Shown here in pieces: positions 9,913-50,630 of a stretch of 64,000 bases of DNA (position 1 is the first letter of the stretch; each line of letters starts with the position of its first letter). The DNA comes from Eledone cirrhosa (Eukaryota). The notes below the pieces were generated by a model. That model saw only the letters and a list, made by a program, of their open reading frames with translations, made no database searches and was not told where the DNA came from. Location of the stretch: positions 322,028,001-322,092,000 of the forward strand of contig OZ024743.1 in assembly GCA_964016885.1 (NCBI GenBank). Direction: 5' to 3'. A program made the position numbers and the translations under genes.

Positions 9913-10050
9913 ATTGTTATACTTTGGGAGGGTCATGTTGCCAATAAGAAACACACGCACCATTTGCTTTCACTTCAATGTTTAACAATATCGGTTTCAA
10001 CACACGTTTTCAGATAAAGAATCTTGCTAAACAAATTCAGAAACGAAATA
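9913..10050 (+). mobile_element. Minimal P2-family footprint (two termini joined in inverted orientation)
   Basis: ttgttatactttgggagggtcatg... fused to aacaatatcggtttcaacacacg...cagaaacgaaat. Same ends as the 23735 and 49583 copies. Confidence 0.85.
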
Positions 10051-10421
10051 TATTATATATATATATATCGATTCTTTGCTTAAACTTTAATCTGTTATTT
10101 TAATAAATATTTGCTCTACGGTTCTTATATATTTGATATATATTTATCCTTATCGAGCCCTCTTTGGATTTTAGTCTTCAAATTTATTATTATTACTATT
10201 ATTACTATATATATATACATATTATATATATATAGTACAATAAAGTACCAGTAATGCATTGGGTAATTGCTGGCCTTGTGCCTAAAGTAGAAACAATTAT
10301 ATATATATATATATATATATATATATATATATATATATATATATATATATATATATATATATATATATATTATATATATATACATATATATTATATATAT
10401 ATATATATATTATATATATAT

Positions 10422-12323
10422 ATGCCAAAACTTGGCATTGAAAAAAAGACCGAACCATTCCTCCCAAGAACTCCGAGGATAAATCTCAAGGATCACAAAA
10501 ACAATTTTCGCACTGAACTACCTGTTAGATTAATCGCCCCCTCTAAATCAGATCTGGGGGTTGTTAGTAAAGCCATCTTGGATAGAATTATCCCACAGGT
10601 TCGTTCTAATTGCTCTTCTTTGAACCTAAATTTATGGTTTGGTACTTCTGAAGTGATTAGCTGGTTCAACAAATTGAATAATAAAAACAAACTAAAATTT
10701 GTTCAATTTGATATTGCCAGCTACTATTCTTCTATTTCGCCTTCACTTCTCAATAATGCTCTATCTTTCGTTCTTAAATATTCTGACATCACCACAGATG
10801 AACTTCACATCATTCTCACCGCACGTAAAACCATCCTAGAGTTCAACAACGAATATTGGACCAGAGCCGATACCTCTAACAACTTCGACATCACAATGGG
10901 AGCATCCGATTCATCCCAATTGACAGATTTAATCGGTATCTTTATTTTGAACTCTTTGAGTCGGAAAATTCCTCAACTTCGCGGTGGAATTTATCGTGAC
11001 GATGGACTCTTTACTATCTTAAATTGCAACATAGTTAACCTTAATATTATTAAGAACAATATACGTAATCTCTTTAACCAACATAACCTAAAAATTGAAT
11101 TTGATAACAGTATCAAACTAGCTAATTTTTTGGATGTATCTCTTAATCTTGACACTGGCCTATATTACCCTTACAATAAAAACAATGAGAACCTAAATTA
11201 TGTTAACTTTAAATCTAACCATCCTACTAATATCAAGAATGCTATAGTTAGTAATATTGGAAAAAGAATATCTAACCTATCTTCTAATAAAAACATCTTT
11301 GATGCTAACGCCAATTACTATAATAACGCGCTTTCTAAAGCCGGCTATCCTGATAAAATCAAATATAGTAAAGAAACAAATTCTAGAAGAACTTACAGTA
11401 GAATAATTAATCATGATCATTCCAATAACTTTAATAAAAGACCTAGATACAAAAACATAATCTGGTATAATGCTCCTTTCTCCATCTCTATTAATAACAA
11501 TATTCCTAAATTATTCTTTAGTGCCTTAAATAAATGCTTCCCTCCCTCACATATATATAGTAAAATATTTAACAAACACACTATAAAATTTTCCTATTCT
11601 ACATCCTCCAATATTTCCAACATTATCTCTAAACACAACAATAAAATACTAAATACTAAATCTCTTCCTTCCAACACTGAATATCATAATAATAGTAATA
11701 GTACTCCCGACGTCATTGTAAACCCTAGGCTAATTTCTGCAAACCCAAATACAACGTCAAACACAACTTCGCTAAATGTTTTTAATCCCATTCTAAATCA
11801 AGAAACTATTATTCCTATCGCAAATAACTTCTCCAATCCAATTCCTTCTATAGATAACACTAGGTCACTCGTTAGTAATCTTTCTAATCGCAATTGCAAT
11901 TGCCCTGTTAAAAATAAATGTCCTCTCAACAACCATTGTCTTTATAAAAACTTAATTTACGAATGTAAAGTTATAACTGACACCAACTCCTTCACCTATT
12001 TTGGCTCCACTTCTACCTCTTTTAAAGCTCGTTTTTATAACCATCATTCGTCTTTTAAATACAAACTTAAAAGAACCAACACGGCTCTCCCAGAACTCAT
12101 ATGGTCCTTGAAAGACAAAAATATTAAATATAGCATCTTTTGGAAGAAGGTTTCTTCTGCGTCTCCATACTTGAACAGTTCTCTATCCAAAATTTGCAAT
12201 CTCTGTCTAAATGAAAAATTTACCATTATATCTAATTTAGATTCTATAATAAATAGACGCACTGACTTGTTTTCTATCTGCTTGCATAAATTCCACAAAA
12301 CATTCCACAAAGTATACAGCTAA
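10422..12323 (+). CDS. Penelope-like retroelement ORF (reverse transcriptase + C-terminal GIY-YIG endonuclease), 5'-truncated, Naiad-like
   Basis: RT motifs FVQFDIASYYSSI, FDITMGASDS, GIYRDDGL and NFLDVSLNL. Cys-rich linker CNCPVKNKCPLNNHC followed by LIY...YFG...FKARFYNH (GIY-YIG), then CNLCLNEK and CLH. The track's N-terminal 56 aa (10254-10421) derive from a SINE tail plus (TA)n and are not part of the element. Confidence 0.93.
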   Translation: MPKLGIEKKTEPFLPRTPRINLKDHKNNFRTELPVRLIAPSKSDLGVVSKAILDRIIPQVRSNCSSLNLNLWFGTSEVISWFNKLNNKNKLKFVQFDIASYYSSISPSLLNNALSFVLKYSDITTDELHIILTARKTILEFNNEYWTRADTSNNFDITMGASDSSQLTDLIGIFILNSLSRKIPQLRGGIYRDDGLFTILNCNIVNLNIIKNNIRNLFNQHNLKIEFDNSIKLANFLDVSLNLDTGLYYPYNKNNENLNYVNFKSNHPTNIKNAIVSNIGKRISNLSSNKNIFDANANYYNNALSKAGYPDKIKYSKETNSRRTYSRIINHDHSNNFNKRPRYKNIIWYNAPFSISINNNIPKLFFSALNKCFPPSHIYSKIFNKHTIKFSYSTSSNISNIISKHNNKILNTKSLPSNTEYHNNSNSTPDVIVNPRLISANPNTTSNTTSLNVFNPILNQETIIPIANNFSNPIPSIDNTRSLVSNLSNRNCNCPVKNKCPLNNHCLYKNLIYECKVITDTNSFTYFGSTSTSFKARFYNHHSSFKYKLKRTNTALPELIWSLKDKNIKYSIFWKKVSSASPYLNSSLSKICNLCLNEKFTIISNLDSIINRRTDLFSICLHKFHKTFHKVYS

Positions 12324-12740
12324 TATCCAAATCTTTATCAATTTAGAATCTTTTTCTCAAAGGCACATATATATATATATACACTTCTTTAAAAATATAC
12401 CCACCTTCCTACCTTATTTCAAAGGTTATTATACATTCTATAATACTTGTTACTCATTCTATATCGCTCCTATTTATCACTTCCCTTTCTTCTCTTTTTC
12501 TTTTAATGTCTAACCCCTAATCTGTACCTTTTCTCACTGTTGCCTAACATAGAATCAATTATTACATAATACAATACATTCTTACTCTATATCACCTTGT
12601 AAAAATCCTTCGTAAACATAAACATCTTTTTGAGTTAGATTATTCATCCTCAATTCATTATTCTTTTCTCCCTTTCATCTAACTCATTCATGCTCATCTC
12701 ACAATATATCCTTACTTAAATTACCTGTTGTTCTTTTTAA

Positions 12741-12907
12741 TAATACATATCAACATTTTCTTTCCATCGCACATATTATTAAACCCTTAAATATCATTCT
12801 TAATACATATTAACTTTTTCTTTCCATCGCACATGTTATTAAACCCTTAAATATTATTCTTAATACATATTAACATTTTCTTTTCATCGCACATATTATT
12901 AAACCCC
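12741..12907 (+). repeat. ~60-bp tandem repeat, ~2.8 copies, in the PLE 3' UTR
   Basis: taatacatat-aacattttctttccatcgcacatattattaaaccc recurs at 12741, ~12801 and 12861. Confidence 0.9.
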
Positions 12908-13262
12908 TCAATATACAAACCTTAACTTTACATTATTTTTCTCTTCGTTAATTTTCAAATTCTTTTAATTTATACATTATCTTCCAACGGTTTTCAACCT
13001 CTCTATGTAAAACAATATATCTTTCTCAGTTATAAAAGCTATCTCTCTCTCTCTATCACCCATCTCTCCTCCTATCTCATCCTTCCTCATTATACTCCTC
13101 CTTCTCCACTTTTTACTCTCATCTCCTCCTCTTTCTCATGCCCCCCCCCCCCTCAAAATAAAATATTTTTCCCAATATCACACATCAATCTAAACCTATT
13201 TCTCATATGTTGATTTAAAACTGCACTATCCACAAGTGTTTTTTAACCTTCATATGTCTTCC

Positions 13263-49220: not shown

Positions 49221-49746
49221 CATATATAAATATATACATACATACATATATGTTTGATATCCCTGCATTTCATTGAAATACTGGTATGTCGTTTAGCTAG
49301 CTGAACTTATCTCGGGATAAAGAATGCCAAAGACAGTCGCTTATTATAAGAGATGCCCACATATATATGACCTTACCCCGCTTCATTTATATATATATAT
49401 ATATATATATATATAGAGAGAGAGAGAGAGAGAGAGAGAGACACGCGCACGCATGCACTTACACACACGCGCGCACGCACGCACGCACACGCACACACAC
49501 ATGTATATATATATATATATATAGTAATAATAATAATAATATATATACATACATATATATATATATATATATATATATATATATTGTTATACTTTGGGAG
49601 GGTCATGTTGCCAATAAGAAACACACGCACCAGTTGCTTTCACTTCAATTTATTATATATTTATAAATTTATAAATTTACAAATCTACAAACTTATAAAT
49701 TTCTGGTTGGTTGGTTGGTTCCACAACCAGATAGTTGTTTATATAT

Positions 49747-49791
49747 AGTCATAGTCCTTTCGTCACACACTCTGTGACCTCTTCAGTGACT
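49747..49791 (-). ncRNA. Hammerhead ribozyme in a PLE 3' UTR
   Basis: Minus strand: agtca-CTGAAGA-ggtcacagagtgtgtgac-GAAA-ggac-TA-tgact. Paralog of the 24231 motif. Confidence 0.9.
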
Positions 49792-50066
49792 GGGGATTCC
49801 TTTCTTTGTTTCTGTGCCTTTCCTTTCTTCTATCCTACGCCATTTTGTTTCTGTGTGTGTGTTGTGTGCTCAGTTTGCGCATGCGCCACATCCGGGCGTC
49901 TGTGTGTGTTTGTGTTCATTTATCTATTTGTTTATTTATTTATTTATTTATTGTTGGTTGGTTGTTTGTTCTATGTGTGTGTGTGTTTTCATTTTGTCCT
50001 GTGTGTGTTTTCATTTTGTCTTTAATTGTAAGTTGTTTGTTCTGTGTGTGTGTTTTCATTTTGTCC

Positions 50067-50445
50067 TTAATTGTAAGTTGTGATGTTGCTGTTCCACTCA
50101 TATTTTCTATTTAATTTTGGTTGTAATTCTTTTATGCTTACTGCCTCTGTAATTTGCCTAAACATTGCATCTTTCCTGTGTGTGGATTCTATTTTTATTT
50201 CTATGTTCTCTAATCTACCCCTGTGTTCTATCTTAGCATGTTGGTAGAGCACAGATGATTCTTTATTATCTTGAAGGTCTCGCCAGTGTTCATTTATTCG
50301 TTCCCCTATACTACGAGCTGTCTCACCTATGTACACTATATTTTTGTTTCTACATTGTCCTTCAGTACATCTTATGCTATACACTACATTTCTAGTTTTA
50401 CAGTTAATATGGGGGCTTATTTTACAGGTTATACATTTCTTATCT
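50067..50445 (-). pseudogene. GIY-YIG endonuclease domain fragment of a PLE
   Basis: CITC...INCKTRNVVYSIRC...YIGETARSIGERINEH...HAKIEH...TEAVSIKELQPKLN. The rest of track ORF 50067-50561 is read-through into the inverted arm. Confidence 0.9.
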
Positions 50446-50630
50446 ATAAATTGAAGTGAAAGCAACTGGTGCGTGTGTTTCTTATTGGCAACATGACCCT
50501 CCCAAAGTATAACAATATCGGTTTCAACACACGATTTCAGATAAAGAATATTGCTAAACAAATTCAGAAACGAAATATATATATATATATATATATATAT
50601 ATATATATATATATATATATATATATATAT

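Follow-up and report, generated by a model that had tools for sequence, protein, structure and literature searches.

This study examined a 64,000-nucleotide stretch of the Eledone cirrhosa genome (GenBank assembly GCA_964016885.1, contig OZ024743.1, positions 322,028,001 to 322,092,000 of the forward strand), which in its full length is called the window, and the short inverted insertions that lie in its (TA)n runs. Four of these insertions, C1 to C4 (Table 1), belong to one family, designated P2 (P2 to P11 are working family labels only), and it is practically certain that they are 5'-truncated inverted pseudo-long terminal repeat (pseudo-LTR) insertions, with an optional tail and placed in (TA)n, of a Penelope-like element (PLE) that has a C-terminal GIY-YIG endonuclease (EN). 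Every P2 copy consists of two 5'-truncated arms joined head-to-head, one ending at the nearer of two fixed termini, here called the short end or short site, and the other at the tail end, a terminus lying 58-60 nt farther on; this pairing of one short with one tail end was seen in 4/4 copies, and the tail is present on exactly one end in each. Four copies with two fixed, inverted ends had been proposed in an initial annotation of this DNA, and they were confirmed at those places with matches far above chance, as the 18-mer just inside the short end was found six times (0.01 expected) and the 20-mer at the tail end four times (0.00 expected). The separation of the ends, first given as about 60 nt, measured 58 nt by the proposed end motifs and 60 nt by the maximal TA borders. 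While the ends proved fixed, the wording of the motifs required correction in two copies: the tail end of C3 reads CAGAAACG followed by ATAT, without AA, and the proposed tail motif fits 3/4 copies, and the short end of C2 reads AAAGTA-AACAATAT, with a 1-nt deletion. C3 lies in the opposite orientation to C1, C2 and C4.

The four P2 copies are independent insertions into (TA)n. Self-BLAST matches among them end at the element ends and all four junctions differ, and for this reason segmental duplication of one locus, which the initial annotation had named among the findings that would overturn its reading, is excluded; the flanks agree, with 18/20 pairs scoring no better than the shuffle maximum and the other two being gappy, AT-rich alignments.

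Table 1. Positions of the P2 copies, their arms and coding or ribozyme features, and of the other two-armed inserts in the window (spans are counted in nt from the short site)
Feature	Positions	Strand	Span	Description
C1	9913-10049			137 bp; between (TA)n runs
C1 short-end arm	9913-9979	-	-65..0	65 nt upstream of short site; abuts (TA)n
C1 tail arm	9976-10049	+	about -12 to -7..+60	tail plus only ~7-12 nt upstream of short site; imperfect junction overlap
C2	23735-24483			749 bp; between (TA)n runs
C2 short-end arm	23735-23909	-	-173..0	173 nt; 5' truncation in predicted hammerhead stem II loop; 1-nt deletion at end
C2 tail arm	23907-24483	+	inside EN gene..+60	EN C-terminus, 3' untranslated region (UTR), predicted hammerhead, putative open reading frame (ORF) start, tail
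C2 GIY-YIG end	23907-24026	+		last 39 codons and stop codon; 37/39 identical to C4
C2 minimal type-I hammerhead motif	24231-24275	+		CUGAAGA, 6-bp stem II, GAAA; stem I AGUCA/UGACU (motif scan)
C2 putative ORF start	24400-24483	+		open for 28 codons from the ATG; short site around codon 8-9 and tail end at 28
C2 tail between the two fixed ends	24426-24483	+		58 nt
C3	27337-27436			100 bp; between (TA)n runs
C3 tail arm	27337-27402	-	-7..+58	tail end 2 nt shorter; only ~7 nt past short anchor
C3 short-end arm	27403-27436	+	-32..0	32 nt
C4	49583-50576			994 bp; between (TA)n runs
C4 short-end arm	49583-50445	-	~860 nt	~862 nt; EN domain, 3' UTR, predicted hammerhead, short end
C4 hammerhead motif	49747-49791	-		motif scan
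C4 GIY-YIG EN fragment	50067-50445	-		CxxC, two Cys between VVY and YIG, two His, stop codon
C4 tail arm	50446-50576	+	-69..+60	69 nt upstream of short site, plus tail
P5a	15528-15676			short/tail palindrome, spacer 0 nt
18499-18922	18499-18922			short/tail palindrome; tail recurs at 30405-30471
P8	25276-25515			short/tail palindrome
P3a	26852-27316			tail end left, short end right; predicted hammerhead in both arms
P9	30505-30790			short/tail palindrome
P4a and P4b (within 31240-31756)	31240-31441 and 31572-31756			short/tail inverted inserts
P4c	42143-42347			short/tail inverted insert; central loop orientation opposite to P4a
P4d	45842-45953			short arm and tail-only arm not reaching short site; no inverted repeat
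P7	46062-46317			short/tail palindrome; short end abuts (AC)n
P10	50634-50929			short/tail palindrome, directly adjoining C4
P3b	62513-62875			short end left, tail end right; longer arm is the tail arm
P11	63281-63535			short/tail palindrome

Coding content and hammerhead motifs of the P2 copies

The EN fragment of C4 matched Pfam PF01541 (E=3.8e-5; 24.3 bits against a gathering cut-off of 22.6), and 1665 relatives were found at E<=0.001. The best relative, Octopus bimaculoides LOC128248506 (P0001; 61% identity over 77% of the EN fragment, E=5.6e-30), is an uncharacterised, truncated protein of 277 aa, too far from near-identity to count as the same family. In the translation, the core of the C4 fragment reads VVYSIRC..C..YIG with two downstream His, and the CxxC preceding GIY-YIG is kept, with the first Cys position of CX2-5CxxC lost at the junction; the full CX2-5CxxC linker is present in 79/87 relatives that cover the linker. 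Since the Neptune/Nematis definition comprises a C-terminal EN, the CX2-5CxxC linker and a CCHH arrangement with two Cys between GIY and YIG (PMC8557442), the C-terminal EN, the CxxC and the paired Cys of P2, as judged from the translations, fit this type. The EN is C-terminal in both C2 and C4, where the stop codon directly follows it and the UTR and pseudo-LTR come after. None of the four copies extends into the reverse transcriptase (RT). Among the relatives, a DD motif was located upstream of the EN motif in 6/12 of those longer than 600 aa, Pfam reported no RT domain in the eight scanned, and a word-indexed search for long relatives yielded one protein out of 37 candidates.

The P2 pseudo-LTR carries a predicted hammerhead ribozyme motif, whose stems I and II in C2 are present in both the minimum free energy and the centroid folds. 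Rfam gave no match for the hammerhead in a focused scan of 24150-24480, and in the whole-window scan, whose output was dominated by microsatellites and palindromes matching miRNA models, the 150 listed of 270 matches all stayed below a gathering score. The short arm of C2 and the arm of C4 both read through the predicted cleavage site. The peptide encoded at the putative ORF start showed a weak likeness to the N-terminus of P0135 (67/5000 shuffles, E=0.13) and none to that of P0151 (460/5000 shuffles), and its resemblance to how a full-length relative begins is no more than suggestive.

End pairing, arm lengths and junctions across the window

An inverted-repeat scan of the window gave 41 matches, of which 14 were tallied, four had unclassable ends and 23, the majority not examined singly, were set aside as weak hits, matches between inserts, palindromes of simple repeats or matches inside an abundant dispersed repeat. 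With C1, C3 and P4d added through family matches, the tally rose to 17 two-armed inserts of 10 families, and all 17 combine one short end with one tail end, which extends over the 64-kb window the tabulation of termini, arm lengths and junctions that the initial annotation had recommended. In each tallied insert the short arm stops against a microsatellite, and the tail reaches some 36-90 nt beyond the short end (about 80 or 130 nt in P10) and is followed by its own microsatellite; a second copy confirmed it as element sequence in 6/10 families (P2, P3, P4, P7, P11 and 18499-18922). Under free choice of site at each end, mixed ends in 17/17 inserts would have P=8e-6, or P=1e-3 when counted per family, and P=0.004 when the four unclassable palindromes are all scored as misses. 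An older relative of the 63281 family (P11) lies at 15746-16231; its right side is a short end, and its left side is probably an inverted arm made up of tail alone (1/500 and 3/2000 shuffles); being old, it was kept out of the 17.

Either arm can be the longer one, as had been claimed. The short arm extends farther 5' in C1, C3, C4 and P4d and the tail arm in C2 and P3b, and the coordinates and strands bear out that the GIY-YIG sequence is joined to the tail arm in C2 and to the short arm in C4. The tail arm ends 7-12 nt past the short site in C1 and C3, and before reaching it in P4d. The arms overlap by 39-176 nt or more in 14/17 inserts, nearly not at all in C1 and C3 and not at all in P4d, and all four copies of the young P2 family have asymmetric arms. 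Within one insert the arms diverge by 0-2%, compared with 6-22% between inserts (P3, P4), and within P2 by 0-0.6% compared with 0-3% between inserts; because the arms of one insert share private variants, one template, or one template lineage, is indicated for both. Perfect palindromes with spacers of 0-2 nt (39/39, 52/52 and 81/82) and diverged ones (77/89, 83/91 and 114/120) both persist, and hence the centres of palindromes do not disappear rapidly in this DNA.

At the short site, the TA phase of the target is continued for 1-4 nt by the element in 7/7 families scored (sum 17 nt, null P=0.004); the score omits P7, P11 and 18499-18922, whose ends are degenerate, resemble microsatellites or are flanked by (AC)n. 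The scoring was confined to the short site, no copy continuing past the tail end, and it is for this site that the earlier suggestion of priming by AT-microhomology is supported. Microhomology at the P2 junctions, partly inferred, amounts to about 3 nt in C2, at most 3 nt in C4 and at most 3-4 imperfect nt in C1, with none in the strict sense in C3. Inversion junctions were observed in or beside hammerhead stem II at 23897-23909, 62601, 31300, 31704, 42208, 45903, 46154, 50716 and 63381; the stem was read directly for C2 and P3b and deduced from a GAAA-adjacent hairpin for P4, P7, P10 and P11. Such clustering suggests RT stalling or stem-guided joining.

Proposed twin priming and competing explanations

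The mechanism that fits these observations best is coupled twin priming on one RNA, which we consider somewhat more probable than not, the pattern being suggestive and no proof. In this mechanism the EN would nick both strands of (TA)n, whose self-complementary repeat would presumably leave 3' ends that look alike. One 3' end would prime at the short site, aided by 1-4 nt of TA pairing, and the other, which the protein probably positions, at the tail end some 60 nt farther downstream; one site per strand is proposed because 17/17 inserts have mixed ends. Both cDNAs would head toward the RNA 5' end, and the tail cDNA would either stop near or before the upstream primer, the stops in C1, C3 and P4d being as expected if one cDNA meets the other primer, or displace that primer and continue (C2, C4, P3b and the symmetric copies). 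To our knowledge, the PLE RT has no RNase H. Often both cDNAs would halt at a common barrier, frequently hammerhead stem II, and their 3' ends would then join head-to-head by way of stem complementarity or of 0-4 nt of microhomology, giving an inverted repeat with the tail on one side only. Whether PLE twin priming is a programmed, routine step with two fixed internal start sites, one per nicked strand, rather than an accident, we regard as evenly poised; the extension of this idea, that inverted pseudo-LTRs, one-sided tails and junction palindromes would all be joined cDNAs, might equally prove right or wrong.

The architecture itself is not new, as the inverted pseudo-LTR with an optional tail was already published in 2013 and 2021 (PMC3846280, PMC8557442) and the P2 structure is the known PLE tail layout; what the window adds is the constraint on end pairing. 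A 31-bp optional tail reaching the first codons was described in PMC3846280, where antisense self-priming was proposed, and PMC8557442 described (TA)n targeting and a tail of 30-40 bp at either end, put the tail down to EN-mediated resolution, and named the origin of PLE inverted repeats and tails an open question. The window inserts resemble these EN-containing PLEs in the head-to-head, 5'-truncated inverted copy, the tail at one end, the pseudo-LTR hammerhead, the (TA)n preference and the junction palindromes, and, tentatively, also in that pseudo-LTR and tail may run into the ORF start (12 and then 22 aa in Adineta Pen2a; about codon 9 and then 28 of the putative ORF in P2). They differ in tail length, which is 58-60 nt in P2 and 36-90 nt in neighbouring families against the published 30-40, and the parts of PMC3846280 and PMC8557442 cited here tabulate neither short/tail pairing nor arm polarity.

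The closest experimental counterpart is Poseidon PAc from Anolis, which cuts and extends both target strands in vitro and whose RT starts at the two tail borders with no difference between strands (PMC11167929). The window inserts would share with it a pair of internal RT start sites, one at either border of the tail, which are close to the ORF start and follow the hammerhead, as well as AT-rich targets and the use of uncleaved RNA. In contrast, Poseidon belongs to another clade and lacks the Zn-finger linker, PAc starts without target homology, and the sections of PMC11167929 considered here neither test a per-strand site difference within one event nor model an inverted junction, and leave the later integration steps unvalidated. 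The fold of 24225-24483 is not unusually stable (z=-1.09), and therefore no PAc-like stem-loop is claimed at the P2 priming sites. In sum, the initial proposal is partly supported, the priming of cDNA by both nicked strands agreeing with the two start sites and both-strand extension in vitro (PMC11167929), although fold-back with later deletion or inversion may also fit the inserts. L1 twin priming (PMC2837659) shares with the window inserts two inverted fragments placed head-to-head, outer ends that are the priming ends, little or no junction microhomology, and target-RNA microhomology at the internal site, for which the 1-4 nt in 7/7 families is the counterpart. However, in L1 twin priming is an occasional variant that uses a poly(A) tail and an internal site that varies, and its arms are usually non-overlapping, whereas the window inserts have two fixed internal sites, a common inverted form, overlaps often of 39-176 nt, and tail ends of unique sequence joined to (TA)n instead of poly(A). 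Our literature searches on the PLE mechanism, which did not cover key older papers, found no paper proposing twin priming for PLEs, and we regard it as a reasonable synthesis that has apparently not been stated before.

Several points weigh against coupled twin priming. Nine of the 17 inserts (P3a, P4b, P5a, P7, P8, P9, P10, P11 and 18499-18922) have near-symmetric arms separated by 0-21 nt, and neither arm is assignable as the longer; target site duplications are unreadable, both flanks being (TA)n. Arm identity could stem from gene conversion within the palindrome, a later inversion between the inverted repeats could have flipped P4a/P4c or C4, whose repeat is perfect over 69 bp, and microhomology-led deletion could have produced P4d. 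The tail lacks second-copy confirmation in 4/10 families (P5, P8, P9 and P10), a significant GIY-YIG match was obtained only in P2, the PLE identity of the other families being suggested by layout and, in some, by hammerhead motifs, and single-armed copies are present at 45964-45996, 42775-42959, 54284-54966 and 30405-30471. The far end of 42775-42959 resembled a P3 tail by eye, a likeness that was not significant (116/500 and 265/500 shuffles), and the copy was counted as single-armed. Older palindromes at 3928-4187, 9346-9426, 25694-26066 and 42445-42512, whose ends are not classable as short or tail, are possible counter-examples. In addition, in vitro RT initiation by PAc was independent of homology to the target (PMC11167929), and mixed ends in 17/17 inserts are also predicted by fold-back with EN resolution, and thus reject only free two-RNA priming.

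In the fold-back alternative, which we hold to be unlikely, the tail-primed cDNA snaps back, often via the self-complementary stem II, and copies itself, and the resulting hairpin is cut by the EN at the short site so that it can be joined to the target; a short arm longer than its partner would be a later product of central deletion or spacer inversion. The near-symmetric inserts, the near-identity of the two arms and the junctions so often in or beside stem II would all follow from it, long palindromes are unstable, and no single insert excludes it. The tail has also been ascribed to EN-mediated resolution before (PMC8557442), and earlier work cited in PMC11167929 holds that recognition by the EN requires the tail. 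Nevertheless, in a tail-first fold-back the short arm can at most equal the tail arm in length, and a short-first cDNA cannot gain a tail; a longer short arm is therefore not the product of simple fold-back, and secondary rearrangement is needed in at least 5/8 assignable inserts (C1, C3, C4, P4d and one of P4a/P4c). The rearranged set would include 3/4 young P2 copies while perfect palindromes survive nearby, the stopping of the tail arm 7-12 nt from the short site, seen twice (C1, C3), is left unexplained, and the RT starts at both tail borders in vitro point to the short site as a priming site (PMC11167929).

Dual priming by an asymmetric RT dimer that uses two RNAs, with each strand on its own transcript of one source locus and tail versus short site set per subunit, appears more doubtful still. 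It would account for either arm being longer and would need no strand displacement to produce arm overlaps of 39-176 nt, a PAc dimer has been predicted (PMC11167929), and twin and dual priming are indistinguishable for L1 too (PMC2837659). Yet free site choice would lead to about 50% same-end inserts, where 0/17 were seen, and strict asymmetry must be assumed; the identity within inserts of divergent families demands that both RNAs come from one locus, and common stop points are more natural with one RNA. We consider it improbable that antisense-transcript self-priming first formed an inverted cDNA that was integrated later (PMC3846280), although the head-to-head junction palindromes remarked in that paper are common in the window, since synthesis in vitro is target-primed on sense RNA (PMC11167929). 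The two fixed outer ends and the non-overlapping arms of C1, C3 and P4d are also left unexplained by antisense self-priming. Segmental duplication of one locus or a long-read assembly fold-back artefact is hardly credible, for although P2 pseudo-LTRs are 97-100% identical and palindromes can be sequencing artefacts, the unrelated flanks and four differing junctions refute duplication within the window, several palindromes have diverged arms, and an artefact would not end at family-specific sites.

A tally of end pairing, longer arm and tail-arm stop separates these models using assembled genomes alone, and octopus-like genomes are rich in informative short inserts, as the 17 in this 64 kb indicate; PLE expansion has been reported in Octopus vulgaris (PMC13282606). 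Should coupled twin priming hold generally, PLEs, which form the sister group of telomerase RTs, would integrate by two-sided first-strand synthesis instead of first- and then second-strand synthesis, and many short (TA)n palindromes that can be mistaken for miniature inverted-repeat transposable elements or hairpin RNA genes would be PLE ends. If it is programmed, it would connect the two-site result in vitro with the genomic structures of many unrelated families; under fold-back, the window would offer an ordinary example of a known structure.

Neighbouring elements and repeats

A separate 5'-truncated PLE occupies 10422-13363 on the plus strand, with an intact 633-aa frame (an RT-like part and a C-terminal EN) and both ends abutting (TA)n. 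Its linker reads CxCX5C and its GIY-YIG core contains no Cys pair, and judged by these motifs it appears to match the description of the Hydra clade in PMC8557442; a hammerhead core is present at 13271, and Pfam gave no hit for the frame. Another hammerhead-bearing family is represented by three copies (13504-13725, 43458-43660 and 42513-42707) which share their 3' end at (TA)n and show no second arm that could be recognised. At 54284-54966 (plus strand) and 52341-52422 (minus strand) lies a diverged relative of the 46062 family (P7), with a hammerhead-like motif near 54820, and a GIY-YIG-like C-terminus reading at 54295-54426 was not significant (E=1.3). A diverged P2-like pseudo-LTR fragment lies at 54997-55100 on the minus strand (0/500 shuffles). 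Neighbouring families share one (TA)n run in P3a-C3 (26852-27436), P4d with a P5 fragment (45842-45996) and C4-P10 (49583-50929), and because different families adjoin within one run, repeated insertion into the same arrays is indicated.

The remaining repeats are of other kinds. A long tandem-repeat block extends over about 33900-41350, with a GC content of about 45%, nearly no CpG in 34-40 kb and long spurious open frames, and a second repeat array is located at about 40630-41350. A dispersed repeat of about 200 bp, which we take to be probably an octopus short interspersed element, has more than 15 copies, for example at 4783-4897, 7149-7332, 8304-8501, 19924-20114, 26541-26737, 44188-44382 and 58745-58935. 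Another dispersed repeat is present in three copies, at 24594-24874, 48322-48652 and 63700-64000, the last two being 97% identical.

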